A stretch of 64,000 bases of DNA, taken from Candidatus Bathyarchaeia archaeon (GTDB lineage: Archaea > Thermoproteota > Bathyarchaeia > Bathyarchaeales > Bathycorpusculaceae). The translations under genes were made by a program, and so were the position numbers. Under the pieces are notes generated by a model. It was not told the DNA's origin. It saw only the letters and a list, made by a program, of their open reading frames with translations, and ran no database searches. The stretch is taken from the NCBI GenBank assembly GCA_038882655.1, contig JAVZNT010000001.1:64001-128000 (forward strand), read 5' to 3'. Shown one piece after another: positions 1,788 through 64,000 of the stretch (positions are counted from its first letter, which is position 1; each line of letters opens with the position of its first letter).

Positions 1788-1862
1788 CACCTCACCGTAG
1801 TTTACGGTTCAACCAGGCGGTTACATCCCAGCGGATTCTCATCCGCCATTGGCTCTCAATGA
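1788..1862 (-). promoter_or_regulatory. Structured 5' leader of rpl15e (candidate ribosomal-protein leader)
   Basis: Minus strand reads CATTG-AGAGC-CAATG, GCGGAT-GAGA-ATCCGC (GNRA tetraloop), GGGATGTAACC-GCCT-GGTTGAACC, then ACCGTA-AAC-TACGGT overlapping the SD GGTGAGGTG. Confidence 0.6.
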
Positions 1863-2583: not shown

Positions 2584-3941
2584 TATCCCATAAGCTTTGA
2601 TTTTGCCTCTTTAAACAATGCCTCGGTTTCGAGTTGCCACTTCTCAAAGTCTCTAGGTGTTCTTGGATAACTCCGATAATAAGCCTTAACTTTATTCATT
2701 AGGTTGACTGTGACCCTTAACTTATTTAGAAAATGAATACGCTTTATGCCTCTGAAAACTCGTTTTGCCGTTTCAGTTATGTTTAAGTGGAAATCCTCGC
2801 CCAAACCAGCTTTTAAAACATCTTCTTCAGTCAGCAGCTTATATTTCATGCCATAGTTCAGGTCGTCGTTGTTGCACTTTAAGAGTAAAAACCTAAAAAC
2901 GTCTAGTGCCGCCTGTTTCATTCCATAACCTTCCATGTATTTAGCGTTGTATTGCCATAAAGCCTCTTGGCTTACATCGCCTTTCTCCAAAGCCTCTACA
3001 ATGGTCTTTCCAGCCAAATATCCACTCAACATTGAAGGACCTATGCCGCCGCCGTGAATTGGATTAACTAGGCACGCGGCGTCTCCGGTTATTATGACTC
3101 CGTTTCCAACCATGTTGTCTAAAGGTCTCCTTGTGGGGTCATACCATGCCCCGCCGTTAAGCAACAGCGAACCATCAAAGAGGGGTTTGGTTAAGACATG
3201 CTTGTAGAATTGCCCTTTTGGGTTTGGAAACTTGTCCCACATGCAGACCCCTAGTCCAGCGTTAACTTTTGCGCTGCTCTTATAGAAAATCCAGGTGTAG
3301 CCGCCCGGAGTTACCTTTTGGTTCAGATATATTTCGCAGTAGTTTTTGTCCCCAATTTCTTGTTTAAGCTGCCTAATCTCCCTATAACAAGCCTCCACAT
3401 CTTCATTGGTTATTTCCCTTTCAATCCTCATTTCATTTGGGAGTTTACGTCTTATAACAGCTAGAAAGCCGCTTGCATCTACAACGGTTTTACCTTCGAA
3501 GCAGATCTTCTCACCAGTCTTCATGTTTTTAGCTAAAACACCCGTTACAAAGCCTTTCTCAATAATGGGCTCTAAACATTGAGTCGAATCAAACAAGACT
3601 GCCCCGTTGTCTAATGTCATTCTTAAAAGCCACTGTCCAAAAAGGCGTCTATTCAAGAGGTAGCCGGAAAAATCCTCATGCCTAACAGTAAAAACAGTTT
3701 CTAAGTCAGGCGAGTATATTTTGACACCTTCTATTCGCCTCTCCAACTCACCATGTTGAGGAGGCTTCAGCCCAACACTCTTTAAATGATGCTCTCCTAA
3801 GGCGTCTCCACAAACTTTCTCACCAATTTCCCTCTGACTCTTTCGTTCAACCAAACAAACTGTCAAGCCAGCTTCAGCTGCCGTTCTTGCCGCTAGGCAC
3901 CCGGCTGTCCCAGCGCCCACAACTACGACATCAAATTTCAT
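2583..3941 (-). CDS. Geranylgeranyl reductase family FAD oxidoreductase (DGGGPL reductase-like)
   Basis: GAGTAG Rossmann motif, KVCGD, PGGYTWIF, GDAACLVNPIHGGGI. Confidence 0.9.
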   Translation of the reverse strand: MKFDVVVVGAGTAGCLAARTAAEAGLTVCLVERKSQREIGEKVCGDALGEHHLKSVGLKPPQHGELERRIEGVKIYSPDLETVFTVRHEDFSGYLLNRRLFGQWLLRMTLDNGAVLFDSTQCLEPIIEKGFVTGVLAKNMKTGEKICFEGKTVVDASGFLAVIRRKLPNEMRIEREITNEDVEACYREIRQLKQEIGDKNYCEIYLNQKVTPGGYTWIFYKSSAKVNAGLGVCMWDKFPNPKGQFYKHVLTKPLFDGSLLLNGGAWYDPTRRPLDNMVGNGVIITGDAACLVNPIHGGGIGPSMLSGYLAGKTIVEALEKGDVSQEALWQYNAKYMEGYGMKQAALDVFRFLLLKCNNDDLNYGMKYKLLTEEDVLKAGLGEDFHLNITETAKRVFRGIKRIHFLNKLRVTVNLMNKVKAYYRSYPRTPRDFEKWQLETEALFKEAKSKLMG

Positions 3942-4025
3942 GGGTTAACCTCATTCCACTCTTTAATACTCTGTATTTTGAAGCTTTTATAAATATTGAA
4001 AGCTATCTGAACGCATTTTTCTGCA

Positions 4026-4535
4026 TTATCTTTGCTGAAACACTTTTGATGGTATAGGGATAGGTATAGCTGTTGTCTCCTTAGGCGTGTCAAACACCAT
4101 GCATGTTAACGTCTTCTCTACGCCCTTCACGGTTCTCAGCTTGTCTATCACAAATCTTCCAACAGAGTCTACATCCTTGTCTTTAACTTTGATTAAAATA
4201 TCCCAATCTCCTGATATTATGTGGACTTCTTGAACCTCTGGAAACTTTGATATTTGCTCAGCTATAGCCCTCTGGGAAAGTGGCACTTCCTCCTTGTTAG
4301 TTCTGTAAGAGAAGGACGCCAATATGAAGGCTGTCACGCCAAAATCCAATTTTCTATGGTCTAGGACGGCTCTGTACTCCTTTATTATTCCTTGCTGTTC
4401 CATTCTCTTTATTTTTGCGAAGACCGTTGTTATGGGCGAATTTATTTTTCTAGCGATTTCTTTTGCCGTCATCTTGCAGTTTTTCTGTAATAAGCTAAGT
4501 ATCGCCAAATCTTTTTCGTCCAGCTTAATGCTCAT
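4026..4535 (-). CDS. Lrp/AsnC family transcriptional regulator
   Basis: LDEKDLAILSLLQKN N-terminal HTH; RAM domain EVHIISGDWD...GVEKTLT. Confidence 0.95.
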   Translation of the reverse strand: MSIKLDEKDLAILSLLQKNCKMTAKEIARKINSPITTVFAKIKRMEQQGIIKEYRAVLDHRKLDFGVTAFILASFSYRTNKEEVPLSQRAIAEQISKFPEVQEVHIISGDWDILIKVKDKDVDSVGRFVIDKLRTVKGVEKTLTCMVFDTPKETTAIPIPIPSKVFQQR

Positions 4536-51474: not shown

Positions 51475-51870
51475 CCAACATCAACCTCGCATATCAGTCA
51501 CTAAACACTTGCAGAACATATAACAACTTAACTAAAAACCTTTTCCTATAAGATAATTGTTGTATTAGTTTTCAGCTTTTGGTTGGAGATGTGAGTACGT
51601 TGCGTTAGTTGTTTAAGCTTCAACACCGCTAATCTGCAGCCACTTGAAAAATGCTGAAAAAGGTTAAGTAAAAACCAGCCTTTAGAACAATAGGACTTAT
51701 TGGCGATATTTCTTTTCACTATCAGGCGTTAAATAAACGGTAAACCTAAAATTGACTCTTTTGACCAATTAAAAATTAAAATGCCATTCCGAGCCGCGGA
51801 AAGGCTGATCGCCTCTAGATTTTCGCAAGTTTTAAATGTATCCTAACTTATAAAAATATTCTACTTTTGT

Positions 51871-52149
51871 TTGCTGGAAAGGTCGAATATGGGGCGTCAT
51901 CGCCGTGGTGAAGTTCAGATTCTGATGGATATTCTAACTCTGTCTTTAAAAGGAGTTAAGGCAACTCACTTGATGTATAAGGCTAATCTGAGTTATTCTA
52001 CTCTTTGTAAGTATCTTTCCGTGGCGTTAAAGCAAGATCTAATTAAGAAAATATATGACAATGATGGATCCACTGTTTATTGCATAACTGAGAAGGGCAA
52101 GCTTCTTTTAGAGAGGCTCAAAGATATAAAGTATGTTTTATATTCTTAA
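51871..52149 (+). CDS. Winged-helix transcriptional regulator (COG3432/HTH_45-like)
   Basis: RRGEVQILMDIL, KATHLMYKANLSY, YCITEKG. Confidence 0.85.
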   Translation: MLERSNMGRHRRGEVQILMDILTLSLKGVKATHLMYKANLSYSTLCKYLSVALKQDLIKKIYDNDGSTVYCITEKGKLLLERLKDIKYVLYS

Positions 52150-52152
52150 TGT

Positions 52153-52515
52153 TTAGGTTACCTCACATATCGCTATTTCTTTTAGTCTAGCCTTCAATCG
52201 AACTTTTAACTCCAAATCCTTTGTGGTGTAATTTCCAATAATTATATCCTGTATTGCTATTTCCCTGTACTTGGGGAGAATGATCTCTCCGGTTGGGGGT
52301 CTGCTTTTTTCAATCCTTTTGCTAATATCTAGCAGCCATTCAGGCAGTTTTACTTCTCCAGTTTTGGCGTCATATTTTATAAGGTTACGCTGAGTTAGGT
52401 CTGTTAGGATCAAATGAAGTTTTTCTTTTGGAATCTCTGTTTCCTTAGCTAGCTGCTTAATACTTTTTGTTTTCTGCTCTTCGATGAGCGATAAAAGGTC
52501 TGCAACTGTTAGCAT
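52153..52515 (-). CDS. Winged-helix domain protein with a small C-terminal domain
   Basis: SIKQLAKETEIP...LTDLTQRNLIKYD...GEVKL. Confidence 0.7.
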   Translation of the reverse strand: MLTVADLLSLIEEQKTKSIKQLAKETEIPKEKLHLILTDLTQRNLIKYDAKTGEVKLPEWLLDISKRIEKSRPPTGEIILPKYREIAIQDIIIGNYTTKDLELKVRLKARLKEIAICEVT

Positions 52516-52542
52516 AGGTTTAAATTTATGTTTCGTTGATAT

Positions 52543-52619
52543 TAAGGTTAGGAATTTTTCGTCTATCTAAGCTTAGGAATTTTGTAGAAAAATAGAGGAT
52601 TTGTCTAGACAATTATCCT
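52543..52619. promoter_or_regulatory. Candidate operator: 16-bp direct repeat pair plus palindrome in a divergent promoter region
   Basis: TAAG(G/C)TTAGGAATTTT at 52543-52558 and 52568-52583; perfect palindrome TTGTCTAGACAA at 52601-52612 flanked by AGGAT...ATCCT. Confidence 0.5.
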
Positions 52620-52664
52620 AGATTTTTCATACTTAACCATTTAAATACATGTTATATCACTTTA

Positions 52665-53138
52665 ATGAGAGGGCGGGGAAAAGGCGAGGAACCAGTAATA
52701 AGCCTAACCTTTTCGCGTCCGCTCCCTTCAGGGAGGGACTTAATAGTGGAAAACGTTGCGGATAAAGGATTCGTGGAAGAGCTTAAAAAGGAGTGGCGAA
52801 CCCTGTGGCAGGAGCGGATAGACGATAAGATTAGGGCTGAAGCCGTAGCCAACAGAGACTATGCTGCTTTGTTTGTTGAACGGGGCACTGTGATCTTCGC
52901 AACAAAAAAGTTTAAACTGCTAAGCTTAAAAGAAATTTTGCAGATGCACGGCATTTTAGACGCAGACACATTTGTCCCGCCGAATCCGTCCGTTGGCGGG
53001 TGGGGAAAATTCATAAGAACCGTGATAGCTAACCAGCAATGTTCAAAGCGAAGAAAACGGGCACAACAATATATAGAAGACGAAAAGGAGAGGCAGCAGC
53101 TAAAAAAGGGCGGAAGAGGCTGGCTTCACGTAATCTAG
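52665..53138 (+). CDS. Hypothetical basic protein
   Basis: Open frame; probable start is GTG at 52746 after SD GGAGGG; ends QLKKGGRGWLH. Confidence 0.6.
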   Translation: MRGRGKGEEPVISLTFSRPLPSGRDLIVENVADKGFVEELKKEWRTLWQERIDDKIRAEAVANRDYAALFVERGTVIFATKKFKLLSLKEILQMHGILDADTFVPPNPSVGGWGKFIRTVIANQQCSKRRKRAQQYIEDEKERQQLKKGGRGWLHVI

Positions 53139-53159
53139 ATAGCCGCTAAGTAAACTTCC

Positions 53160-53519
53160 ATGTCCCCCCTTCGAGTAAAGTCTGGTTCGAGCGGATTAGT
53201 TTTGGGCAGCTATAGGAGCAGATTGGACATTATAGCTGACATCCTTTCAGTTGTTAGGGGTAATGGAAAGGCTAGAAAAACACAAATTATGTACGGTGCG
53301 AATTTAAGCTACGCTGTTTTGACGCGATATCTATCTGACGTTCTAAATGCTTGTCTAATAAAATTTGAAAGCAGTAAACGCTGTTATGTACTAACAGAAA
53401 AGGGAAGAAAGTTCCTTGAGCATTATCGTGAGTATTCTAGACGTAATAGGCATGTGGAACGCCAACTAGAGACCGTTAACGCGAAAAGAAAAGTTTTGGA
53501 GGAACTCTGCTCTGCATAA
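53160..53519 (+). CDS. Winged-helix transcriptional regulator (COG3432/HTH_45-like)
   Basis: YRSRLDIIADIL, KTQIMYGANLSY, YVLTEKG; likely start TTG at 53202. Confidence 0.88.
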   Translation: MSPLRVKSGSSGLVLGSYRSRLDIIADILSVVRGNGKARKTQIMYGANLSYAVLTRYLSDVLNACLIKFESSKRCYVLTEKGRKFLEHYREYSRRNRHVERQLETVNAKRKVLEELCSA

Positions 53520-53531
53520 GGCTCAGTTAAG

Positions 53532-54005
53532 GTGACAATCTTGCATGTTTCGAAAATTTTGATGGTTGTTCTTTTGATTTCGACTGCGCTTTTCATATCG
53601 CCGGCTGCATGCTCCAGTCAGAGAGAGGCCGAATCACGGATTCAATCGGTTGAGGAAGAGGTTCTAAACTGTTACAGGGCTGCTTATGAGGCTGAAAAGG
53701 CTGGGGCTAATGTAAGCGAATTACTCCATAATTTAAATGAGGCTGGATGGCTTTTATCCCAAGCTAAGCACGCCTATAACTGTGAAGATTATGACTTGGC
53801 GGTTTATTTTGCAAATCTGAGCCTAACAAAGCTAGCGGGTTTAGTTGACAAAGCTAACGGTTTAAGGATAGATGCTGAGCAAACTCACTTTTATGATTTC
53901 ATGATCAATTTCGTAGGTTCAGCTGTCGGCGCTGTAGCTATTCTTGTGGTTGGCTACGGTGTTTGGGTTTTCTTAAAAAGACGAGAAAAAACTGTGAGGG
54001 TGTAA
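53532..54005 (+). CDS. Exported helical protein with C-terminal membrane anchor
   Basis: Signal peptide, AEKAGANVSELL helical core, C-terminal TM followed by KRR. Confidence 0.7.
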   Translation: MTILHVSKILMVVLLISTALFISPAACSSQREAESRIQSVEEEVLNCYRAAYEAEKAGANVSELLHNLNEAGWLLSQAKHAYNCEDYDLAVYFANLSLTKLAGLVDKANGLRIDAEQTHFYDFMINFVGSAVGAVAILVVGYGVWVFLKRREKTVRV

Positions 54006-54008
54006 ATT

Positions 54009-54623
54009 TTGAAAATCGTTGAAAATGGGCTTCTTTATTGGACTGCTGTCGGCGTTTTGGCTTTACTCGTAGCTTCACCTTTCCTTAGCAAGGTTCTGGT
54101 TTATCCTCGAACAGAATTCTTTACGGAACTTTGGATTTTGGATGCTGACCATAAGACTGAAAATTATCCATTTAATGTTACGCCCAATCAACCCTACACT
54201 ATTCATTTGGGCATCGGAAACCGTTTAGGTTATTGCGCCTATTACATGGTTCAAGTGAAGTTTCGAAATCAAACGCAGCCAGAACCGTCAAGTTTCGGAC
54301 CTATTGAAGACCGTGTTCCTAGCAACTTAACCTCACTCTTCAATATTACAGCTTTTGTGGCAGACGAGCAAGTTTACGAGATTCCCTTAACCTTTTCCTT
54401 TAACTATACTTGGGATGAACAGTTTTCAAAAGTTAAGTTCTCATATTTGAGGCTTAATGGTCTATGGTTGAACATGAGCGACTACACGATTTCTTGGGAT
54501 GCTGGAAAAAGAGAGTTTCGGGGATGCTTATTTTTTGAGTTATGGCTATACAATAACGGTGCAAATGATTTTCGATATCATGGGCGTTTTGTTAGGTTAT
54601 GGCTTAACATGACGGTTTATTAA
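54009..54623 (+). CDS. DUF1616-like membrane-anchored protein
   Basis: EFFTELWIL...ENYP...LGIGN...Y.VQVK...FELW...LWLNMT pattern. Confidence 0.75.
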   Translation: MKIVENGLLYWTAVGVLALLVASPFLSKVLVYPRTEFFTELWILDADHKTENYPFNVTPNQPYTIHLGIGNRLGYCAYYMVQVKFRNQTQPEPSSFGPIEDRVPSNLTSLFNITAFVADEQVYEIPLTFSFNYTWDEQFSKVKFSYLRLNGLWLNMSDYTISWDAGKREFRGCLFFELWLYNNGANDFRYHGRFVRLWLNMTVY

Positions 54624-54662
54624 TGGCGTTTGTCATAATGTTTTAGCCATAAGTATTTCTGT

Positions 54663-54736
54663 GCCGGGGTGGCTGAGAAATTAAGCGGCGGCCTGCAGAG
54701 CCGCTTACGTTGGTGAAAATCCAACCCCCGGCTCCA
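54663..54736 (+). tRNA. tRNA-Cys(GCA) with non-canonical D and T loops, encoded CCA
   Basis: Acceptor GCCGGGG/CCCCGGC, U73, CCA. D stem GCT/AGC with loop GAGAAATTA. Anticodon arm GCGGC-CTGCAGA-GCCGC (GCA at 54695-54697). 4-nt variable loop. T arm GTTGG-TGAAAAT-CCAAC. Confidence 0.92.
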
Positions 54737-54757
54737 TACAATTTCGAGGTGTGAACT

Positions 54758-55876
54758 TTGGTTTGTAGGCGAAGTTTAGAATGGCTTAAAGAGAAGGTTA
54801 AAGATATGCGTTCATTTGAGGGTTCACTTCTTAGCTATGTAGGTTTGCCTATAGAAGCTGAAAGCTGTGATGTATTGAAGCTGGATTCGAATGAAAACTT
54901 TTTTGTGGATGCTAATTTTTTGAGGCAGATTTTTATGGAGGCTTTGGGTGATGTTGATTTAAGGCTTTATAATCCCGGTGTTATGGCGTCTTTAAAGGAA
55001 ACTTTGGGCAAGTATGTTGGTGTTCCCGGCGGATGTGTTTGTGTTGGAAGCGGCGCGGAGCATTTGATCGATTTTATTGCTCAGTCTTTTTTGGGTGCTG
55101 GCGATATGGTTGTTTCCATTGTGCCTAGCTTTTTTATGTATGGAAAGAGGGTTTCGCTTTGTGGCGCCAGCATTGCTAATGTTCCCCTTAAAGGTGATTT
55201 GTCTCTTGATGTCGATGAGATTCTAGCCAAATGCACGGATAAGACCCGACTTGTTTTTATCTGTTCGCCGAACAACCCTACAGGGAATGAGTTTAGCTGG
55301 GGTGAGGTTGAGGCTTTAGCTGATGGGTGTTCCGCTCTTATAGTTGTGGATGAGGCGTATGCAGAGTTTGGTGAAGGCTCTGCATGTCCTAATGCGGTTG
55401 AGAAGGAAAACGTTGTTGTTGTGAGGACTTTTTCTAAGGCTTTCGGTTTGGCTGGGTTGCGTTTTGGCTTTTTGGTTGCAAATGAGAAATTGGCTTCTGC
55501 GTTTTCTGAGGTTATTCCATACACTGTTGGCACTGTTGTGGCGCGTTTTATTGAAAGATTGCTTGAAAAGTGTGATGTTGTGGTAGGCTGGGTTAACGAG
55601 GTCAAAAAGGAGAGGGAGAGGTTGATAAGGGAATTGCGTTCTATTAGCGAAGTTGAAGTTTTTGATTCTAAGGCGAATTTTGTTACTTTTCGACCAGATA
55701 TGAATGCGAACCGCGTTTATAATGGGCTTCTTAAGAGAGGTGTTGTTGTCAAGAACCTTGGCGATTTGCCGGTTATTGGACACTGTTTGAGGGTTACTGT
55801 TGGGCTTCCAGAAATGAACGACAAGTTCCTCAACATGTTAAGGCAAGTTTTAAAAGAAAATGGGCACGGCCCTTAA
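54758..55876 (+). CDS. HisC/CobD-family PLP enzyme (class I/II aminotransferase fold)
   Basis: LDSNEN, SPNNPTG, DEAYAEF, RTFSKAFGLAGLRFG, LRVTVG; SD GAGGTG just after the tRNA. Confidence 0.9.
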   Translation: MVCRRSLEWLKEKVKDMRSFEGSLLSYVGLPIEAESCDVLKLDSNENFFVDANFLRQIFMEALGDVDLRLYNPGVMASLKETLGKYVGVPGGCVCVGSGAEHLIDFIAQSFLGAGDMVVSIVPSFFMYGKRVSLCGASIANVPLKGDLSLDVDEILAKCTDKTRLVFICSPNNPTGNEFSWGEVEALADGCSALIVVDEAYAEFGEGSACPNAVEKENVVVVRTFSKAFGLAGLRFGFLVANEKLASAFSEVIPYTVGTVVARFIERLLEKCDVVVGWVNEVKKERERLIRELRSISEVEVFDSKANFVTFRPDMNANRVYNGLLKRGVVVKNLGDLPVIGHCLRVTVGLPEMNDKFLNMLRQVLKENGHGP

Positions 55877-55888
55877 GGCAGCATTTTT

Positions 55889-57766
55889 ATGGGCGGAATT
55901 TGCGGCTTTTTAGATTTAGGCGATAAATCGTTACTTAAAAGAATGTCTCAAGAAATTTCACATAGAGGTTTCCACGAAGACTTTTTCGTAGACAAATATG
56001 TGGGCATGTGCTCAAGAAGCATAACCAAAGAAGATGGTTTAGGCAAAAATGAGGACGGTAGCTTACGGGTAGCCTTTGATGGCGAGATTTTCAACGTGGA
56101 AGATTTGCGAGGCGATTTAGAGAAAAGGGGGCATAGTTTTTCTTCTTCTTGCACGGCGGAATTAATAGCCCACCTTTATGAAGAACATGGCTATTCATTA
56201 GTCGATGAGCTTAGAGGAGGTTTTTCCTTCGCTTTATGGGATACCGATAAAAAATTGCTTTTGCTGGCGAGGGATAGGGAAGGCGAAAAATCGGTTTTCT
56301 ACGCTTTTCTTAATGGAAGCATCTATTTTGCGTCTGAAATAAAGCCACTTTTATGCTGCGAGGCAATAGAGAAGAAGTTAAACCCTAGCGGTTTGGACTA
56401 TTATTTTTCATGGGGGCACGTTCCAGCCCCAGAAACCCTTTTTATAGACGTGAAGAAACTTCCTCCTTCACATTTATTAATATATAATTTTGGCGATAAA
56501 AAAATAGTCTTGCATAAGTATTGGGATTTAGACCTTTCAAAAATTGAATACAGTGTTAGCGAAGAGGAGTGGTGTAAAAGAATATATAGTATGCTTGTTG
56601 AATCCGTTTCCATACGATTAAAAGAGAGCCCCTTCGGAATTCTTTTAGGCGGACTTGATTCTAGTGCAGTAGTAGCGTTAATGAAGAAGTTGACGGATAA
56701 ACCGATGAGCTCCGTAACCATAATGTTTGAAAATGAAGAATTTAACGAATCTTACTCTAAATACGTTGCTGAATGGTTAGGAATAGAAGCATATGAGAAG
56801 ACATTGTGTGCAAAGGACTTTATCCGAATAACCCAAAAATTAGCGCAAATTTTTGACGATTTGAGAATAGATCTGCTTATTACAATACCTTCTTTTTTGG
56901 CTCTTGAAACAGCTAAGGAAAAAGCTAAAACAGTGTTTACTGGAGATGGTGCTGATTGCACCTTTTGGAGTTGGGGATGGGACTTTAAACCAAGGAAGTT
57001 GAAAATGCTCTCCATTCGCTCCAGTCTTAAGATGATACGAGAGCATTCGATAAGTTCTTATGAGCTAATGAATGCATCGTTAAAAGTTTGGCATGCCTTC
57101 AAAGATGCTGTTAAGGCAAGGGTATTAACTGTGCATCTTCCGTTTGAATTGCAATCGCTTTATAGTGAACAATACTTTCATGAAGATGAACTTCAAGAAC
57201 TGCTAGGACGCAATTGCACCGTAAATGTATATTCCCCGTTTCTTGAATGTTTGATAAGTCCTGCCGACAATCTTGGGAGTAAGATGAACAAGATGCGATT
57301 AATAAATAGGAAGTTTGAAGTTATTGGAGGATGGGGTGTGGAAAGACTTGGGAATATATGCTCGCATTTTCATCTAGGACTGAGAACCCCTTTTGAAGAT
57401 CATAAGTTAAGAGAACTGGCTGCACGTATTCCACCACAATTAAAACAGCCTAACGTTTTACTTGACAAATTCATCTTTAGGAAGACGTTGTTAAAGTACT
57501 CGCTTTTACCAAAAGAGGTCGTTAAACAGAAGAAATGGGGATTCGGATGGGGACTTGGCGAAATGGCAGCTAAATGGTTTAAGGGAGAGCTAAAAGATTA
57601 TGTTGAACAAGTCGTTAATGAAGAGGCAGCTCTAATTGAACCGGTGTTAGGGAAAAACGTTGTGAAAAAATATATGTGTAAAGGTCGTCCCTTGCAGGTT
57701 TTATCGCTTGTAACTTTTATGCTTTGGTATAAGCGCTTCTTTGAACAAGATAAAGTGGTGGGATAA
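55889..57766 (+). CDS. Asparagine synthetase B-like amide ligase, lacking the N-terminal nucleophile Cys
   Basis: Starts MGGICG (canonical MCGI); HRG, FDGEIFN, ARDREGEK, FASEIK, GGLDSS, TGDGAD, RTPFED. Confidence 0.88.
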   Translation: MGGICGFLDLGDKSLLKRMSQEISHRGFHEDFFVDKYVGMCSRSITKEDGLGKNEDGSLRVAFDGEIFNVEDLRGDLEKRGHSFSSSCTAELIAHLYEEHGYSLVDELRGGFSFALWDTDKKLLLLARDREGEKSVFYAFLNGSIYFASEIKPLLCCEAIEKKLNPSGLDYYFSWGHVPAPETLFIDVKKLPPSHLLIYNFGDKKIVLHKYWDLDLSKIEYSVSEEEWCKRIYSMLVESVSIRLKESPFGILLGGLDSSAVVALMKKLTDKPMSSVTIMFENEEFNESYSKYVAEWLGIEAYEKTLCAKDFIRITQKLAQIFDDLRIDLLITIPSFLALETAKEKAKTVFTGDGADCTFWSWGWDFKPRKLKMLSIRSSLKMIREHSISSYELMNASLKVWHAFKDAVKARVLTVHLPFELQSLYSEQYFHEDELQELLGRNCTVNVYSPFLECLISPADNLGSKMNKMRLINRKFEVIGGWGVERLGNICSHFHLGLRTPFEDHKLRELAARIPPQLKQPNVLLDKFIFRKTLLKYSLLPKEVVKQKKWGFGWGLGEMAAKWFKGELKDYVEQVVNEEAALIEPVLGKNVVKKYMCKGRPLQVLSLVTFMLWYKRFFEQDKVVG

Positions 57767-57767
57767 A

Positions 57768-59117
57768 ATGAGTGCTGGAGAACATCTCAAGGTCAACGAG
57801 AATAACCACTTAGCACTTCATGAAGTTGATTTAGTTAGTCTGTGCGAGAAGTATGGCACTCCGCTTTTTGTTTTCGATGAGACTAGCTTAGTTGAAAGTT
57901 TTGAGAGGTTTAAGCGGGCTTTTGAGAGTATTTATCCAAAGGTTATGGTTTGTTATTCTATTAAAACCAACAATAACCTAGCTTTATGCAAAATACTCTT
58001 CGAAAGAGGCGCTTACGCGGAAGTTTCTTCAGAACTGGATTTGCACGTAGCTTTGAAAGCTGGATTCCACGGAGACCGAATAATTTATGATGGGCCCTTT
58101 AAGCCTACCAAGACATTGGAAAAGGCCGTTGAAAATGAGGTTCTGCTTATCAACTGTGAGTCTTTTGTTGAGTTGGAAAGGCTTAATGAAGTCGCTGAGA
58201 AGTTTAAGGTTAAGCAATCAATAGGGTTAAGGGTTAATCCTTTTAAGCGTCCAAGTTTTCTGCGAAGTTTGCATCCGAAAACTCTTTTAGAAGAGGCCGC
58301 TTTTTGTTTCCCAAGCTGTAGGTTTGGTTTTTCTATAAGCGAAGTTTATGAAGCTTTTAAATTATTGAAAAAGCTTGAAAATTTGCGTCTTGAGTGTCTT
58401 ATGACGCATCCCTATCACAGGGCGATTAGTGTTCTTATGCCCCTTTTTAAGGAAGCTCATCGGAATCTTGGCTTTGAAATTAAATATCTCAATGTTGGGG
58501 GTGGCTTTAACCCTGGCACAAGTGGTTCAACGGGAGACCTTTTGTTGGCTTTAGACCATGTCAAAAGGGGTTTAAGGATGAAGTCTACTTTAGATCAGGA
58601 GAGGCACATGAGAAGCATCGATGATGTTGCCCGAACAGTTGTAAATGAAGTTAAGCAAAACCTTGAAGGTTTGCCTGAACCAACTTTGATAACTGAGCCT
58701 GGCCGCTTTATTGTCGGTCCTTCTGGGTTGCTGCTTTTGAGGGTTGATCACGTTAAATCTGCTGGTGGTTTCAAATGGATTATTGTGAATGGTGGTACAA
58801 ACATTGTTCCAAGCTTCTATGAGAGGCGTGAAATTCTAGTTGCTAACAATGGTTCTGCTTCGGAGAAGGAGTTAGTTAATGTTGTTGGTCCGCTTTTGTA
58901 TCCTAAGGATTTTATTGCTATCAAGACGTGGCTTCCGAAGGCTAAGGAAGGGGACATACTGGCTGTTCTTGATTGCGGAGCTTATTCGCTTTCAAGTTCC
59001 ACACAGTTTCTTTACCCCAGACCGCCAGCGGTTTTGGTAAACTCGCGTGGAGATGTGTATCTAATTCGTGAAAGAGAGAGTTTTGAAGACGTAACTGCAA
59101 AGGATATAGTTCCCTAA
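57768..59117 (+). CDS. Group IV (LysA/ODC fold) PLP-dependent enzyme, atypical
   Basis: YGTPLFVFD, YSIKTN (PLP Lys), NVGGGF, EPGRFIV, GPLLYPKD (canonical GPLC), GAYS. Confidence 0.88.
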   Translation: MSAGEHLKVNENNHLALHEVDLVSLCEKYGTPLFVFDETSLVESFERFKRAFESIYPKVMVCYSIKTNNNLALCKILFERGAYAEVSSELDLHVALKAGFHGDRIIYDGPFKPTKTLEKAVENEVLLINCESFVELERLNEVAEKFKVKQSIGLRVNPFKRPSFLRSLHPKTLLEEAAFCFPSCRFGFSISEVYEAFKLLKKLENLRLECLMTHPYHRAISVLMPLFKEAHRNLGFEIKYLNVGGGFNPGTSGSTGDLLLALDHVKRGLRMKSTLDQERHMRSIDDVARTVVNEVKQNLEGLPEPTLITEPGRFIVGPSGLLLLRVDHVKSAGGFKWIIVNGGTNIVPSFYERREILVANNGSASEKELVNVVGPLLYPKDFIAIKTWLPKAKEGDILAVLDCGAYSLSSSTQFLYPRPPAVLVNSRGDVYLIRERESFEDVTAKDIVP

Positions 59118-59135
59118 CGCTTTTGGTTGGTTATT

Positions 59136-60251
59136 ATGCTTAGCTTGCGTGTTATCGCCGATTTAGAGGATTTTGAAAATTTAGGAAGCATGTGGAACAA
59201 AATATTAGCAAAGTCTTTAGATAACGATGTCTTTTCCACACGGGAATGGATCTGGTGTTGGTGGAAGCATTTTGGCAAAAAAAGAAGTTTACGAGTGCTT
59301 GTCGCTGAAGAAAATGGCGAGATTGTTGGCTTAGCCCCTTTTGCACTTACAGAATATTCTTTCTTGCGTGTTGGAAAGTTGAGGCGCATCGAGTTTATTG
59401 GTTTCCCTCATGCAGATTATAACAACTTTATTTTAGTCAGAAATCCATCTGATTGTTTAAGGCTCTTTATTGAAGGCTTAATGAAGTTTGCAGACTGGGA
59501 TTTTCTGGATTTAAGGGATATTCGCGAACAAAGTGCATCAGCAAACAGTTTACGTATGCTCCTAAACATTGAAGGAGCAAAGTTAAGGTTAACAAATGGC
59601 ACTCTTTGCCCCTGCATTAATTTGCCAAGATCCATTGAAACCTTCCAAAGCAACTTAAGTCGCAACATGCGGAGAAACCTACGGAAAAGGTTAAGGAAGC
59701 TTCGCGAAAGCTATAAAGTTGAATTTAAGACGCAGCGGGATTTTGACTCTATTGATGAGGCGATGGAAATATTTTTCAACCTCCACCAGAAACGTTGGAA
59801 ATCTAAGGGAAAGCAAGGCGCCTTCGCAGCTGAGGATTTCAGAAAGTTTCATTTGGACGTTGCAAAAGTTTTCGATAAAAAAGGTTGGCTTGACTTGCAT
59901 TTCTTAATGGCAAACGACGAGCCAGTTGCCGCAGCCTACACCTTCGACTATAACTCGAAGAAGTATGGCTATTTAACTGGTTTCGATCCTGAATTTGGGC
60001 ATTTCGGTGTTGGAAATCTGTTAAAGTTGCATCTAATTGAGGAATGCATCAAAAAGGGGTTTAGGGAGTACGATTTAACAAGGGAATTTGAACCCTATAA
60101 GGCGGAGTGGGCAACTGTTATTAGGAAAAATCTGATTGCGAGAATTGTTCGACGGGGCTTGTCCGCCAAAATGTATTGCTGGGCTTTAGAGAACAAGTTT
60201 TCACAATGGCTTTTCACTAGATTGGGTGTTCGTTTATCAGTTAGAGAATAG
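59136..60251 (+). CDS. GNAT/Fem-fold protein, CelD/BcsL (Acetyltransf_6)-like
   Basis: VFSTREW...WWKHF, VGLAP, ADYN, LSRNMRRNLRK, LHQKRW, GFDP...GVGNLL, YD.....EPYKAEW. Confidence 0.85.
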   Translation: MLSLRVIADLEDFENLGSMWNKILAKSLDNDVFSTREWIWCWWKHFGKKRSLRVLVAEENGEIVGLAPFALTEYSFLRVGKLRRIEFIGFPHADYNNFILVRNPSDCLRLFIEGLMKFADWDFLDLRDIREQSASANSLRMLLNIEGAKLRLTNGTLCPCINLPRSIETFQSNLSRNMRRNLRKRLRKLRESYKVEFKTQRDFDSIDEAMEIFFNLHQKRWKSKGKQGAFAAEDFRKFHLDVAKVFDKKGWLDLHFLMANDEPVAAAYTFDYNSKKYGYLTGFDPEFGHFGVGNLLKLHLIEECIKKGFREYDLTREFEPYKAEWATVIRKNLIARIVRRGLSAKMYCWALENKFSQWLFTRLGVRLSVRE

Positions 60252-60266
60252 CTAAATGCCACTTGG

Positions 60267-61298
60267 GTGAGTATCAGAATGACAGAATATCGCGTGATTG
60301 AAGATTCGCCGAAAGATTCATGGGATTCATTTCTACAGAAACATTCTGTTGGGAATTTTGAGCAGTGTTTTGAGTATGGCGAAATATCGAGAAAGGCTTT
60401 TCCAAAAACAAATGTTGTTAGACTAGCGTGTACGCGTGGAAACGAAGTCGCTGGTGTACTTCAAGGAACTTACTCTAAATATTTCGGGTTTGGCATGACT
60501 TTAGGCGTCATGCGTGCTCCTTTTGTGAATTTCGAAGATGAAGACGCTGTAAACATTGTGAAGAGTCTTCTTGAGAGTTTAGAAGACTATGCCAAGAGAA
60601 ACCGGATTATTGAAGTCCGTGTCTTTGTGCCCGAAGCATGGGGTTTCCACAATGTGTTTCAATCTCTTGGGTACACGGTTACTGAACAGCTGAACGAATA
60701 TATCGTGGATTTAGAGAAAGGTGTCGACGAGCTTTGGAAGGGCGTCTCCCATAACAAGAGGAAAAATATTAAAAAGGCTATGAGTCAAGGCGTAGAGGTC
60801 TTCGAATCTCGGAAAAGAGAGGATCTGTTGACTTTTTACTCTATGCTTAGGGCTGCAGAAGAAAGGGGGGGATTTACAAGCTACCCATTGTCTTGGTTTG
60901 AAGCGGCTTTGGAATTGTACAATCCAGACTTGTTAAGGGTTTTTCTTGCAAGCTGGAATGGGAAAGCTGTTTCAGGAGTTTTTACCGTTGCACATGGCAG
61001 GACTGTTTTCGCTTTGGCTGCTGGCTCGTTTAGCGAAGGCTGGAAAGTTAGACCCAACGATATTATGCACTGGAAAGTCATGGAGTGGGCTTGCCAAAAA
61101 GGATACAGCAGGTATCAGATGGGTCTAGTTTCAGAACCACCGCCGAGTGAAGGCTCGAAGGCTTGGGGAATTTGGAGATGGAAAAGGGAATGGGGTGGAA
61201 GCCTAAACAAACTTCAAGTTTACCATAAGTACTTTAAGCCTCGATACAAGCTTATTTTAAAAGCTAAAAAGATTGTAGAAAAGTTTGCTGCACGATGA
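60267..61298 (+). CDS. FemABX-like (aminoacyl-tRNA-dependent transferase fold) protein
   Basis: WDSFLQKH..GNFEQ..EY, YIVDLEKGVDELWK..SHNKRKNIKKA, PNDIMHWKVMEWACQKGY..Y.MG, GIWRWKREWGG (compare Fem G..RFK..FGG). Confidence 0.8.
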   Translation: MSIRMTEYRVIEDSPKDSWDSFLQKHSVGNFEQCFEYGEISRKAFPKTNVVRLACTRGNEVAGVLQGTYSKYFGFGMTLGVMRAPFVNFEDEDAVNIVKSLLESLEDYAKRNRIIEVRVFVPEAWGFHNVFQSLGYTVTEQLNEYIVDLEKGVDELWKGVSHNKRKNIKKAMSQGVEVFESRKREDLLTFYSMLRAAEERGGFTSYPLSWFEAALELYNPDLLRVFLASWNGKAVSGVFTVAHGRTVFALAAGSFSEGWKVRPNDIMHWKVMEWACQKGYSRYQMGLVSEPPPSEGSKAWGIWRWKREWGGSLNKLQVYHKYFKPRYKLILKAKKIVEKFAAR

Positions 61299-61347
61299 TT
61301 CAACCAATTTCCCGTATGAACCGTAAAACCTACAAGAAATGGCTGGG

Positions 61348-62038
61348 ATGAACATCGAACAGAAAGCGAATAATAATATTTGCACCCCACCCCGATGACG
61401 AGACCTTCGGTTGTGGAGGAACAATCGCTAGGCGAGTAAGTGAAGGATACGATGTTTTAATCGTCGTTATGACCGATGGTAGATACGCCTTCCTAAAAAT
61501 GCTAAACATTGATTCCGACCCCACTCCTGAAGAATTGAAAGAGATTAGAAAAGAAGAAGTGAAAAGAGCCACAAAAATTTTGGGAGTACCCGAAGAAAAT
61601 TTAATCTTCCTCAATTTTGAGGACGGAACCCTTCGAAACAGCATGGAAGAAGCTGAAAGAAAAGTTACCGAAATATTAAAGATGTACCGTCCAGTTGAAG
61701 TTTATTTCCCTTATAAAAGTGATGTTCATCCAGATCATCAAGCTGCGTACCACATTGTCAAAGGTGCCGTTGCAAGAGCTGGTTTCCCGATAAATGGCTA
61801 TCAGTATTCCACATTTCATAAGTATATGCGCCTAGGTCCGATTATTGATAGGACACTGGGCATTATTAGGCGTAATATAATTCGAGTCGATGTTTCAAAA
61901 TTTCTTTCAAAAAAGGAAGCAGCCATTAAGGAGTTCAAAAGTGAACTATCGATCATATCAAACGTCCAGAAAAATCCTCTTATAAAAGCCAAAGATATCA
62001 AAAATTATTTGAAAAGTAAAGAGCTGTTTTTAAAATAG
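61348..62038 (+). CDS. PIG-L/LmbE family deacetylase; apparent 1-nt frameshift just after the start
   Basis: The frame of ORF 61469-62038 extends upstream through KRIIIFAPHPDDETFGCGG but has no in-frame ATG/GTG/TTG. ATG at 61348 is one base out of frame. Downstream motifs TDG, RKEE, FEDG, HPDH. Confidence 0.85.
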
Positions 62039-62089
62039 ACTATTAAGTGTGCAATGTGACACGGCTTTTATTGTAAGGAGAAAGAGGAC

Positions 62090-63142
62090 ATGATAAACGT
62101 TGGAATTATTGGCCTTGGCCATATGGGTATACTTCACTTAATGAATTGCCGACATATTGATGGCGTTAAAGTTGTTGCTGTAGCTGACAAGTCTAAAGGA
62201 GCCTTAAAAAAGGCTGAACTTTTTGGTGTGAAAGCTTTTTTCACAGATTATCAAGATTTATTGAAGGGACCTCCTAAGGTTGATACAGTCATTATTGCTT
62301 TGCCTAATTTTATGCATTTTGAGAGCATTCAGAGCGCGCTAGAAGCAGGTGTTGATGTTTTTGTAGAAAAACCGTTGGCAAACACCGTTGAAGAATGCGA
62401 GAAAATCATTAAGCTTGTCGAAAAAAGTGGCAGAAAATTAATGGTAGGTCATAATATGCGATTTATTGAGGCAGTTGCGAAAATGAAGGGGGCCATAGAT
62501 AGAGGACATATTGGCGATGTAGAGGCAATTACACTTGAACAGATATTAAATGGACCCTTTGCTCACGGTGCAATTCCTAGGCCCGTGGCGGAATGGTGGT
62601 TCGATCCTAAACGGGCAGGGGGTGGAGTTTTACTGGACTTGGGATATCACATGCTTGATTTGTTTCGTTTCTTTGTCGGGGAAGATCCAGAAGTGATATT
62701 TTCATATTTAAGCTACAAATTTAACTTACCAACGGAAGACGGCGCAATTGTTATACTACGATCCCCCGTTTCAGGTGCAAGGGGAATAGTCAACGTTGGT
62801 TGGTTTCAAAAATCCGTTTTCCCGGAATACAATTTCCGCGTAGTTCTTCATGGTTGCGCAGGCTTCATTTCCAGTGAAAACCTTGCACCGAGAAACATTT
62901 ACTTTCATGCAATTAAAGAAGGAACGAAAAATATTCTGCGGAAAACTTTCGGGAGGAAAATAAAGCCTTTATCTTGGTCTTACTATTACGAAGCCTATTA
63001 TAAAGAACTCCAAAGCTTTTTCAGTTGTGTAAGGAATGACTCGGAACCGCCTGTTTCAGCTGTTGATGGCCTAAAGACCGTGGAGCTTATCGAGAAGGTC
63101 TACAAAAAGTTTGGTAAAAAAGAACCTCGACGGGACGTATAG
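62090..63142 (+). CDS. Gfo/Idh/MocA family NAD(P)-dependent oxidoreductase
   Basis: GIIGLGHMG, VEKPLA, VGHNMRF, GGGVLLDLGYH. Confidence 0.93.
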   Translation: MINVGIIGLGHMGILHLMNCRHIDGVKVVAVADKSKGALKKAELFGVKAFFTDYQDLLKGPPKVDTVIIALPNFMHFESIQSALEAGVDVFVEKPLANTVEECEKIIKLVEKSGRKLMVGHNMRFIEAVAKMKGAIDRGHIGDVEAITLEQILNGPFAHGAIPRPVAEWWFDPKRAGGGVLLDLGYHMLDLFRFFVGEDPEVIFSYLSYKFNLPTEDGAIVILRSPVSGARGIVNVGWFQKSVFPEYNFRVVLHGCAGFISSENLAPRNIYFHAIKEGTKNILRKTFGRKIKPLSWSYYYEAYYKELQSFFSCVRNDSEPPVSAVDGLKTVELIEKVYKKFGKKEPRRDV

Positions 63143-63146
63143 AAAA

Positions 63147-64000
63147 TTGGGCGACATTGTAGGTTTAGTCCGAACACTAGACTCAAAAGAGGAAATAAAA
63201 AGTTCCATAGGAAAAGCCCTCGACCTCATAAATTTTAAACCAAAGGGTCGTGTAAAAGTTATAGACATCAAGGTTAACTTGTGTTATTATTGGCATGCTT
63301 CTACGGGTTGCACAACAGACCCCCGGGTTGTTAGTGCGATAATAGACTGTGTGCGTGAACGGTATGGTGAGAACGTTCGCATTCGAGTTGTTGAGGCCGA
63401 TGGAACTGCAATGAGAACAAAATATGCCTTTCTGATGCTGGGCTATGAAAAGCTAGCCAAGGAGAAAAATGTGGAACTTTTTAACCTCTCGGAAGACGAG
63501 GTACGTGAAGAAAAGGCTTATGTAAATGGGCATGAAATCCGATTCCAAATACCTACGTCGCTTTTAAAATCTGATCTTTTTATTAATGTGCCAAAACTGA
63601 AAACTCTTAGGGAAACCGGATTCTCATGTGCCCTCAAAAATATTTATGGTTGTATAGCCTATCCCAGGAAGATAATTTATCATCCCATTTTAGATGAAGC
63701 AATCGTTGGAATAAACAAGATACTGCAGCCAAACCTCACGATAGTTGACGGTATTATTGCCCTTGGACGTTTTCCAATTAAGCTTGGGCTTATTATGGCT
63801 GGTAGAGATCCATTTTCTATTGACTGGGTTGCCGCGAAAATAATGGGTTTTAATCCTTCAAAAGTTAAGTTCTTGAAGATCGCTATAAAAGAGAATGTTG
63901 GAAGTTTAAATGGTCTTCAAGTTCAAGGAGACGATATCATTTTTTTCCGGAAATCCTTTCCTAAAGTAGGCTTATTTTCGTCTAAGCGTTGGTGGAATTT
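63147..64000 (+). CDS. DUF362 family protein, 3' end outside the window
   Basis: Manual translation from TTG at 63147: ...IKVNLCYYW...TTDPRVV...VVEADG...FINVPKLKT...CALKNIYGC...IVDGIIAL...DPFSID. Confidence 0.85.
   Translation, partial: MGDIVGLVRTLDSKEEIKSSIGKALDLINFKPKGRVKVIDIKVNLCYYWHASTGCTTDPRVVSAIIDCVRERYGENVRIRVVEADGTAMRTKYAFLMLGYEKLAKEKNVELFNLSEDEVREEKAYVNGHEIRFQIPTSLLKSDLFINVPKLKTLRETGFSCALKNIYGCIAYPRKIIYHPILDEAIVGINKILQPNLTIVDGIIALGRFPIKLGLIMAGRDPFSIDWVAAKIMGFNPSKVKFLKIAIKENVGSLNGLQVQGDDIIFFRKSFPKVGLFSSKRWWN

Follow-up and report, generated by a model that had tools for sequence, protein, structure and literature searches.

A variant tRNA-Cys gene heading a FemX-like gene cluster in a Bathyarchaeia archaeon: a candidate non-ribosomal cysteine donor

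Why should an archaeon that already has an ordinary transfer RNA (tRNA) for cysteine carry a second, deviant one directly ahead of an operon that encodes FemX-like proteins? The question is raised by a stretch of 64,000 nucleotides (nt) from a Candidatus Bathyarchaeia archaeon (assembly GCA_038882655.1, contig JAVZNT010000001.1, positions 64,001 to 128,000 of the forward strand), referred to here as the window; it lies on the 186.6-kb contig C1 of a genome (G000) of 1.02 Mb in 27 contigs that is 84% complete. The reading favoured here, with a probability of about 0.55, is that the tRNA is a dedicated non-ribosomal cysteine donor for FemX-type aminoacylation of a sugar amine. An earlier interpretation made from the letters of the window, the sequence-only reading, had proposed tRNA-dependent transfer of cysteine or phosphoserine to a sugar amine, yielding a glycan, lipid or small thiol in a system without a described archaeal counterpart. 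That proposal is supported in part: linkage between tRNA and cluster, the second-copy status of the tRNA, the FemX-like nature of two GNAT proteins and the choice of cysteine speak for it, and the small-thiol product and the supposed lack of precedent do not fare well.

The variant tRNA-Cys(GCA) has U73, an encoded CCA and a U-A pair at T-stem position 51:63. Its D-loop, GAGAAATTA, is without the GG of G18G19, and its T-loop reads TGAAAAT (G55 A56) instead of TTCAAxT. In the whole genome, 21 tRNA genes were detected by ARAGORN, two of them tRNA-Cys(GCA); the other copy, at C3:51691-51764, is canonical, with GG in the D-loop and the T-loop TTCAACT, and shares its acceptor stem and U73 with the window copy. 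The label "deviant" applied in the sequence-only reading is thus justified by direct comparison within one genome. A canonical tRNA-Cys was found beside the variant in 7/7 genomes checked, namely this one and six other carriers. Likewise, the claim that the tRNA lies 21 nt ahead of a tightly packed same-strand run holds in the coordinates, the tRNA ending at 54736 and the first gene opening with TTG at 54758. Since the spacer measures only 21 nt, it leaves no room for a separate promoter, and since it also lacks an oligo-T run, the tRNA and the operon are probably co-transcribed. Upstream of the tRNA, no conserved promoter element could be called across 24 loci; TTTAAA-like boxes are present in some of them. 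A contig from run X6 agrees with the window up to 54743, which is 7 nt past the tRNA 3' end, and continues with 50 unlike letters, suggesting a related strain with different DNA directly after the tRNA. Contigs of four sequencing runs were compared with positions 52000-64000; two runs labelled metatranscriptomic are probably DNA, and the single clear RNA run contributed no matching contig.

An alignment of 20 variant homologues was found to have 98.5% of its cells paired in the cloverleaf, with compensatory changes on both sides in 9 of 20 pairs. None of 500 shuffles scored as high, and slid controls were 27-56% paired; cloverleaf pairing and compensatory changes above all shuffles argue for selection as a tRNA. 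G34 C35 A36 and U73 are invariant in the alignment, positions 32, 37 and 38 vary, G37 is mostly kept, and GCA, U73 and the 3' CCA are retained in 19-20 of the 20 sequences. The anticodon, U73 and G37 are determinants common to cysteinyl-tRNA synthetase (CysRS) and phosphoseryl-tRNA synthetase (SepRS), according to a review (PMC8762117). Judging by the alignment, selection maintains the variant RNA as a tRNA, with the features recognised by CysRS preserved. One variant, at L043:5824-5898 (-), has an 8-nt anticodon loop in which ARAGORN calls the four-base anticodon AGCA; GCA is still there.

The deviations are systematic. For the T-arm, 53 distinct tRNA-Cys sequences of the lineage were compared, 20 with a non-TTC and 33 with a TTC T-loop. 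The non-TTC triplet is TGA in 19/20 and TGC in 1/20, and pair 51:63 of these sequences is C-G in 10, U-A in 9, U-C in 1 and G-C in none, whereas G51-C63 occurs in 32/33 TTC-type sequences, the lone exception being the operon-linked L026. In 6/6 genomes, identity among variants is 79-91%, as against 63-81% between a variant and the canonical tRNA-Cys of the same genome. Being closer to each other than to their canonical companions, the variant tRNAs make up a separate lineage, which moves with the cluster. The encoded CCA was dropped as a hallmark of the variant, as most canonical tRNA-Cys of other families encode CCA too.

These features bear on the simplest alternative, in which the gene supplies an ordinary translating tRNA-Cys to the genomic island that carries it, either for more cysteine decoding or to replace an attacked host tRNA, and the odd loops are tolerated drift. 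Mobile DNA often carries tRNA genes, what charging and decoding need is kept (GCA, U73, an intact cloverleaf), and the linked copy in L026 has a normal T-loop. Drift, however, sits badly with three deviations that recur jointly in 20 distinct sequences, with G51-C63 in 0/20 of them against 32/33 of the TTC type, and loss of G18G19 together with Psi55 (pseudouridine) and C56 removes universal elbow contacts. A canonical copy is already present in every carrier genome checked, and the variant gene sits in one kind of gene cluster (16/18 metagenome and 8/8 order-level loci). An ordinary tRNA is therefore considered unlikely.

The link with that cluster was assessed using a Fem profile, the T-arm pattern and a covariance-model search, in genomes that are related, so that the counts given here are not independent events. 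Among the 30 best loci of the covariance-model search over 151 order-level genomes, cluster homologues lie within 1.5 kb of 8/8 variant-type and 0/22 canonical tRNA genes. The check suggested in the sequence-only reading, whether the deviant tRNA-Cys accompanies the operon in other genomes, thus gave a positive answer, and because only the 30 best loci were examined, the variant is present in at least 8 of the 151 genomes. In metagenome contigs, the T-arm pattern matched 21 contigs, 3 of them by chance; the resulting 18 tRNAs stand beside clear cluster homologues in 16 cases, beside weak HisC fragments in one and beside none in one. The exact pattern was present in 3/401 genomes of a class-wide sample, and a Fem-like gene in 3/61 genomes of relatives and 0/13 genomes of the same genus. 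In G038, from another family and with a Fem protein of 47% identity, a tRNA-Cys sharing this T-loop precedes a HisC-like gene by 13 nt and heads the same cluster. On the other side of the variant tRNA, homologues of the DUF1616-like gene are the usual upstream neighbour (L005, L023, L039, L041, L044, L048 and L087-L090). L023, a cluster carrier, comes from a metagenome-assembled Bathyarchaeum sp. genome.

The coupling to the transferase genes themselves is looser. Ten variant loci have 5.5 kb or more of sequence downstream; in seven of them a FemX-fold gene follows on the same strand at no more than 8.6 kb, and G135, one of the three with none in that range, carries a distant Fem-like gene about 11 kb downstream. 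In G442, a GNAT6-type gene follows the variant tRNA by about 100 nt; G153 and G442 each have two GNAT6-type genes and no Fem type. When species-representative genomes were searched with the Fem profile, 17 loci were obtained, and 2/17 have a tRNA, in both cases a tRNA-Cys directly upstream of a HisC-like gene. Of six HisC-LysA-Fem loci, four have the tRNA and one has a remnant of it. On these gene neighbourhoods, the association of the tRNA is with the whole cluster, and the cluster can do without it.

A tRNA that precedes the first gene by 13-42 nt in many loci, and is probably co-transcribed with it, might instead act as a tRNA-shaped element of the operon transcript, such as a processing site for RNase P or 3' trimming, an mRNA 5' end or a Cys-charging sensor. 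The persistence of the cluster without the tRNA in L015 and L022 would fit this role as well. A processing signal, however, needs no invariant GCA, U73 and CCA while neighbouring loop positions vary, and the deviations match those reported for known Fem-donor tRNAs, so this account is likewise held to be improbable.

Two candidate transferases are encoded near the tRNA. The Fem-like identity proposed for both GNAT proteins was borne out, for one by Pfam and PDB sequence searches and for the other by predicted fold. A profile of 18 homologues of the protein encoded at 60267-61298 matches S. aureus FemX (6snr) with E 9.5e-25 over both domains, the coiled-coil insert being missing, and that of W. 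viridescens with about 3e-12. The invariant WRWK of the window protein aligns with WAFK of S. aureus FemX, and W301-K302, invariant in 18/18 Fem-like sequences, aligns with F-K of the S. aureus WAFKK. By these matches the protein is FemX-like; its score against TIGR03019 (pepcterm_femAB), 72.1 bits, is under the cut-off of 260.35. The protein encoded at 59127-60251 has PF13480 as its only Pfam domain (PF04339 is weak, 17.9 bits against 27) and no PDB match by sequence. Its AlphaFold2 model (pLDDT 82.7, pTM 0.83) has W. viridescens FemX as top Foldseek match (E 8e-13, TM score 0.63/0.70); FemX of W. viridescens and S. aureus is followed by Sbb17/Sba18 and then by MprF-type synthases, and tandem GNATs that use acetyl-CoA, such as VipF, rank lower, with TM scores of 0.35-0.37. 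This protein, too, is FemX-like by its predicted fold. In the GNAT6 sequences, Y324-K325 is invariant (11/11). These pairs may correspond to the conserved aromatic-lysine pair near the C-terminus of W. viridescens FemX, F304-K305.

As to the amino acid, a CysRS scores over its cut-off in 6/6 variant-carrying genomes (this one and five others), and SepRS (TIGR00470) reaches at best 61-89 bits against a cut-off of 380.65 in the same 6/6 genomes, which are 84-98% complete. With CysRS over its cut-off in all six genomes and SepRS in none of them, the cargo is likely cysteine. Of the two donors named in the sequence-only reading, cysteine is thereby favoured and phosphoserine becomes the less likely one. 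An extra, shorter CysRS-like gene is present in three carriers (G132:C3:1437-2657, G136:C7:54458-55681 and G135:C14:74705-75970), unlinked to the tRNA; these genes score 305-315 bits over model positions 1 to about 400 of 466, in open reading frames (ORFs) of about 420 aa, and the G135 copy carries in-frame stops. Their length presumably recalls MshC-type ligases.

The eight same-strand ORFs that follow the tRNA are separated by gaps of 9-51 nt or overlap, apart from the start of the PIG-L gene, and the domains that the sequence-only reading had named in this run were recovered by Pfam and NCBIfam scoring (Table 1). Several of these assignments call for comment. The HisC-like enzyme, which depends on pyridoxal phosphate (PLP), has cluster-linked orthologues that are 50-76% identical among themselves and 33-43% identical to the unlinked HisC of relatives, and these unlinked genes have no tRNA nearby; by sequence identity it is a cluster-specific subfamily. 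A hisC gene exceeds the TIGR01141 cut-off in only 6/21 relatives, and hisD was not found in this 84%-complete genome. The idea that housekeeping hisC and lysA merely adjoin the tRNA was rejected on the grounds that no hisD was found, that the unlinked HisC of relatives are so distant and lack a tRNA nearby, and that the LysA-like protein stays below the lysA cut-off (TIGR01048, 255 bits against 297.9). The LysA-fold gene is the sole LysA-like gene found in the genome, and its protein also matches the exosortase A-associated decarboxylase model TIGR03099 (137.1 bits, cut-off 478.45).

The AsnB-like enzyme has its best NCBIfam match in TIGR03108, the XrtA/PEP-CTERM system amidotransferase (290.3 bits, under the cut-off of 816.9), and its domains make amidation of a carboxylate its likely role; in L005, an ATP-grasp gene stands in its place. 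Class II glutamine amidotransferases usually begin MCG. The ORF begins MGGICGF (55889-55910), so that the catalytic cysteine would not be N-terminal unless another start is used or a propeptide is removed. The Gfo/Idh/MocA protein scores 149.5 bits with the UDP-GlcNAc 3-dehydrogenase model NF040723, under the cut-off of 450, and the best NCBIfam match of the PIG-L protein is BshB1 (69.9 bits, under 182.5). The PIG-L frame, which encodes RKRIIIFAPHPDDE with the APHPDDE motif, opens right after TGA at 61349-61351 and contains no ATG, GTG or TTG before 61469; an ATG at 61348 is one base out of frame, and orthologues begin M(S)NKKRIIVFAPHPDDE. Because a contig from another study is identical over 61235-61510, the anomaly is probably not an assembly slip, and the gene may be broken, frameshifted in translation or unusually started.

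Table 1. Features at and around the variant tRNA; positions refer to the window
Feature	Position	Strand	Evidence
DUF1616-like membrane protein	54009-54623	+	PF07760 E 3.2e-07, 30.3 bits, just under the 31.6 cut-off
Variant tRNA-Cys(GCA)	54663-54736	+	ARAGORN (sole tRNA in the window); Rfam tRNA model 54.4 bits vs gathering score 29
Spacer from tRNA to first ORF	54737-54757	+	21 nt; Shine-Dalgarno-like GAGGTG; no run of five T
HisC-family PLP aminotransferase (class I/II)	54758-55876, TTG start	+	PF00155 158.9 bits; TIGR01141 287.8 vs 276.55
AsnB-like glutamine amidotransferase/ligase (Asn_synthase + GATase)	55889-57766	+	PF00733 132.8 bits
LysA-fold PLP decarboxylase (Orn/DAP/Arg decarboxylase fold)	57741-59117	+	PF02784 115 bits
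Tandem-GNAT protein (Acetyltransf_6, CelD/BcsL type)	59127-60251	+	PF13480 131.3 bits
FemX-like protein, candidate aminoacyl-tRNA-dependent transferase	60267-61298	+	PF02388 85.8 bits vs cut-off 24
PIG-L family de-N-acetylase, disturbed start	61352-62038	+	PF02585 64.4 bits
Gfo/Idh/MocA oxidoreductase, candidate sugar 3-dehydrogenase	62090-63142	+	PF01408 102.6 bits
DUF362 protein	63111-64000, ORF ends 70 nt past the window	+	PF04015 129 bits

A different use of the tRNA would be as a carrier on which the amino acid would be remodelled by the HisC-like and LysA-like enzymes, or extended by the AsnB-like or ATP-grasp ligase, before being transferred. A HisC-like gene lies immediately downstream of the tRNA in the window and in L005, L023, L026, L030, L036, L046, L048 and L049; HisC-like and LysA-like genes together co-occur with the tRNA more tightly than Fem does (4/6 loci, with 1 remnant); and the ATP-grasp gene of L005 would suit such an extension. 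The chemistry of SepCysS and the tethered chemistry on acyl carrier protein in butirosin synthesis offer parallels. Against this, GT2 or Gfo genes follow the tRNA instead in many variant loci, and we know of no HisC-family or LysA-family enzyme that acts on aminoacyl-tRNA; remodelling on the tRNA has, in our estimate, only a slim chance of being correct.

The genomic setting extends beyond the window. A region of about 38.3 kb, G000:C1:115546-153872, is missing from the congeners G004 and G013, in which the sequence ending at C1:115545 runs straight into the homologue of C1:153873 onward (86-89% identity), with the proteasome-alpha region as the left flank of the empty site; this direct junction of both flanks in two congeners defines the region as a strain-specific island. 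Its left part corresponds to window positions 51546-64000, and the remainder, about 25.9 kb, lies past the window. The G+C content of the island is 40.0%, compared with 43.2% for the rest of C1. Beyond the window end, the run continues with two GT2 glycosyltransferases, a second Gfo-type oxidoreductase, a CE4 polysaccharide deacetylase with DUF3473 and a methyltransferase, followed farther along by additional glycosyltransferases, a second AsnB-like gene and a DUF2206 membrane protein. A gene of the GH5 cellulase family lies on the opposite strand in mid-island (L001:6756-8012 (-), equal to G000:C1:132755-134011). Outside the island, at window positions 1801-1846 (-), the Rfam eL15-Euryarchaeota ribosomal protein leader scores 40.8 bits against a gathering score of 33.7, in a genome that its named homologues place in Bathyarchaeia.

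Islands often integrate at tRNA genes, and the tRNA could accordingly be a relic of site-specific integration of this 38-kb, lower-GC insertion into a tRNA-Cys gene, with no part in the pathway. The arrangement makes this very improbable: the empty site in the congeners is without a tRNA gene; the variant tRNA is 3.1 kb away from the island edge and flanked on both sides by cluster genes; a search for tRNA halves elsewhere in the genome returned only one chance 15-mer; no boundary repeats of at least 10 nt were found at the island ends; no integrase domain occurs among the island ORFs scanned, a few small ORFs lying outside the scan; and the cloverleaf is maintained by compensatory changes.

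Rearranged forms of the locus were encountered elsewhere. At L015:6184-6240, GCGCGCGG takes over from the tRNA sequence after CTGC of the anticodon loop. A split tRNA was considered for this locus and rejected, as no matching 3' half was found and the best covariance hit is a canonical-range tRNA-Cys; the 5' half is read as a remnant. In L042, GCGCGCGC connects the 3' side of the tRNA with what is left of the HisC-like gene, a C-terminal part. Short runs of GCGCGC recur at or near rearrangement points in L015 and L042, and upstream of the tRNA in L035, L037, L038 and L089. Fragments of the Fem-like cluster were also detected in metagenome-assembled genomes (MAGs) labelled Methanophagales (L028, 75% identity over the last 110 residues) and Nanoarchaeia (L019, 46% identity), and named homologues come from Helarchaeota and Hodarchaeales as well. 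These finds suggest transfer of the cluster between archaeal phyla, unless some of the bins are mixtures.

Near the right end of the island, outside the window, an exosortase/archaeosortase-family protein of 685 aa is encoded (L125:4251-6308, equal to C1:149750-151807). It scores 106.7 bits with PF09721 (cut-off 25.7) and 48.1 with TIGR04178 (cut-off 23), and stays below the cut-off of the XrtA model (68.8 bits against 208). Directly upstream lie genes for two small secreted proteins (L125:2849-3424 and 3489-4190; together with the exosortase gene, G000:C1:148348-151807), both of which end in [IV]PD[LY]PVVGTAGAV, a transmembrane helix and KKKQ, and are the only two such proteins in the genome. 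When five other carriers were queried with the exosortase, a homologue with 50% identity was found in G038 on the same contig as the variant tRNA, about 33 kb downstream, and another in G132 on a different contig; there was no match in G111 or G135, and a fragment only in G136. The small protein beside the exosortase ends in VPQYPLGT... in G038 and VPEFPFGT... in G132. From these termini, the motif looks like a class of C-terminal sorting signal not previously described. A further Bathyarchaeota MAG (L014:13777-15723) has an exosortase homologue (36% identity over 656 aa) preceded at 2.8 kb by a Fem-like gene near which neither a tRNA nor any other cluster gene is present; a link between Fem and exosortase thus exists without the tRNA. 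Furthermore, four island proteins have their best or near-best NCBIfam matches in XrtA/PEP-CTERM families, all under the equivalog cut-offs.

For the favoured reading, in which the tRNA is a cysteine donor, we infer co-transcription, charging with cysteine, exclusion from translation, transfer and acceptor, in a pathway that would run as follows. The tRNA would be transcribed together with the operon and charged with cysteine by the ordinary CysRS, which would recognise GCA, U73 and the mostly kept G37. The altered elbow, without G18G19 and with G55 A56 for Psi55 C56, together with a T-stem lacking G51-C63, would keep it off the elongation factor and the ribosome. Cysteine would then pass to one or both of the FemX-fold transferases, which would acylate the amino group of a sugar; this amine would be freed by the de-N-acetylase or made by the Gfo-type oxidoreductase and the aminotransferase. 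Assembly of the remaining glycan would fall to the island's AsnB-like amidotransferases, PLP enzymes and glycosyltransferases. A further step can be envisaged, in which a glycan or glycolipid would carry the cysteine as an N-cysteinyl "linking sugar", whose free 1,2-aminothiol would serve as acceptor when the exosortase-family enzyme transfers the two sorting-signal proteins. Anchoring would then resemble native chemical ligation, the thiol capturing the acyl-enzyme before an S-to-N shift. This extension is tentative, with the odds clearly against it.

Several observations weigh against a dedicated donor tRNA. Most Fem-like loci (15/17) are without a tRNA; a covariance-model search of 18 Fem loci returned no further tRNA-Cys-like sequence, and in five tRNA-less Fem genomes, tRNA-Cys matches fall solely in the canonical score range. 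The full HisC-LysA-Fem arrangement is present in L015 with only the 5' half of the tRNA and in L022 with none, so that the tRNA is dispensable for the cluster. Conversely, 3/10 of the long-flank variant loci have no FemX-fold gene in range, and no such gene was found in G111 (89% complete) or G056 (69% complete). The operon-linked copy in L026 has a normal TTC T-loop, the linkage counts share the non-independence of related genomes, and the view that the elbow and T-stem changes would weaken binding to archaeal aEF1A or the ribosome is carried over by analogy from a bacterium.

Dedicated non-ribosomal tRNAs are known for bacterial cell-wall cross-bridges. The literature searched yielded none for Archaea, for cysteine or for glycan decoration, and no paper linking Bathyarchaeia with Fem-type enzymes. 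If the tentative extension to exosortase anchoring is true, this would be the first non-ribosomal tRNA for Archaea, TIGR03019/VimA-type enzymes would be shown to depend on aminoacyl-tRNA, and the long-sought acceptor of an exosortase-type system would be named. The roles of the FemAB-like, AsnB-like and decarboxylase proteins that accompany exosortases, as well as the compound to which exosortases attach their substrates, have been open since those loci were defined; a tRNA wired into such an operon offers a concrete hypothesis, in which Cys-tRNA is the donor, two enzymes are specified and a mass tag is predicted for a glycan or for processed C-termini. It would also illustrate, from nature, how altering the elbow and T-stem of an archaeal tRNA might keep it out of translation.

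Comparison with known systems helps to place the cluster. As in mycothiol and bacillithiol synthesis, a PIG-L deacetylase and glycosyltransferases accompany a would-be cysteinylation of a sugar amine; unlike there, a tRNA would supply the cysteine, the PIG-L gene has a disturbed start, and the genes belong to a large island for glycans and sorting. No MshC- or BshC-type ligase was found in this genome, which has a single high-scoring CysRS-like gene. The small thiol offered as a possible product in the sequence-only reading fits poorly, since the surroundings of the genes are a 38-kb glycan island, which also encodes many glycosyltransferases, an exosortase-family protein and sorting-signal proteins. 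A parallel for the transferases is provided by Sba18 and Sbb17 (PDB 9wqw, 9wqx, 9wqy), which by their entry titles are aminoacyl-tRNA-dependent peptide synthases acting on streptothrisamine, an amino-sugar-containing ligand. Their FemX-like fold ranks 8-10 for the model of the 59127-60251 protein (TM score 0.56-0.58 by query, 0.70-0.74 by target). Unlike the proteins of the window, they are bacterial antibiotic-pathway enzymes, with 13% identity to the 59127-60251 protein. To our knowledge, no dedicated tRNA serves them.

The XrtA/PEP-CTERM exopolysaccharide loci of bacteria, reportedly described by Haft et al. in 2006, likewise combine an exosortase-family protein with substrates ending in a motif, a transmembrane helix and a basic tail. 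The present cluster differs from them in its equivalog scores, all of which stay below the cut-offs (72.1/260.35 for TIGR03019, 290.3/816.9 for TIGR03108, 137.1/478.45 for TIGR03099 and 261.1/276.2 for TIGR03006), in a sorting motif of [VI]P[DEQ][LYF]P..GT rather than PEP, and in its archaeal host. The literature searched contained no record of a tRNA gene in bacterial XrtA/PEP-CTERM loci.

For the tRNA itself, the nearest counterpart is the Fem-donor tRNA-Gly of S. aureus and S. epidermidis, which is also an extra isoacceptor beside a canonical one and is reported to be charged by the normal synthetase and to serve FemABX-family transferases. In the non-proteogenic tRNA-Gly genes of S. aureus, TGC or TGT replaces TTC in the T-loop (PMC7826273), and G49-U65 and G51-C63 are absent, resulting in lower affinity for EF-Tu (PMC12256121). 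According to these reports, a TGN triplet, which eliminates U55 (Psi55), and the loss of G51-C63 are shared with the archaeal variant, which additionally lacks C56 and the D-loop GG. The archaeal tRNA further differs in belonging to an organism without murein, in pertaining to cysteine rather than glycine, in heading the transferase operon, whereas the S. aureus tRNA lies in a tRNA/rRNA unit, and in its acceptor, presumably a glycan instead of lipid II.

The enzyme set has its best match in the Wbp/Vim pathway of P. gingivalis and T. forsythia. Type IX secretion system (T9SS) cargo is described as anchored via a 2-N-seryl or 2-N-glycyl uronic "linking sugar" made by Wbp enzymes, the AsnB-like WbpS, the de-N-acetylase VimE and VimA, a match to TIGR03019 that determines which amino acid, Ser or Gly, the freed sugar amine receives (Veith et al., 2020; PMC7468200). 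The same authors offered the speculation that a comparable sugar, modified with an amino acid, serves in exosortase systems, and since the main text of their paper does not mention "tRNA", the donor for VimA is left open there (PMC7468200). With Wbp/Vim and XrtA/PEP-CTERM sharing the same enzyme set, the earlier statement that no such archaeal system has been described stands for Archaea, where none was found, and has to be qualified by these bacterial precedents. Both Wbp/Vim and the present cluster combine a Gfo-type dehydrogenase with an aminotransferase, an AsnB-like amidotransferase, a de-N-acetylase and a TIGR03019-like transferase, and the Wbp/Vim product is reported to anchor sorted proteins via a sortase-like enzyme. 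The likeness is one of shared enzyme logic, VimA being compared by its family description. Unlike Wbp/Vim, the archaeal cluster has a dedicated tRNA, an aminotransferase of the HisC type, and an exosortase/archaeosortase-family protein in place of PorU. The same enzyme logic together with a dedicated tRNA suggests that here the donor would be an aminoacyl-tRNA and the amino acid cysteine.

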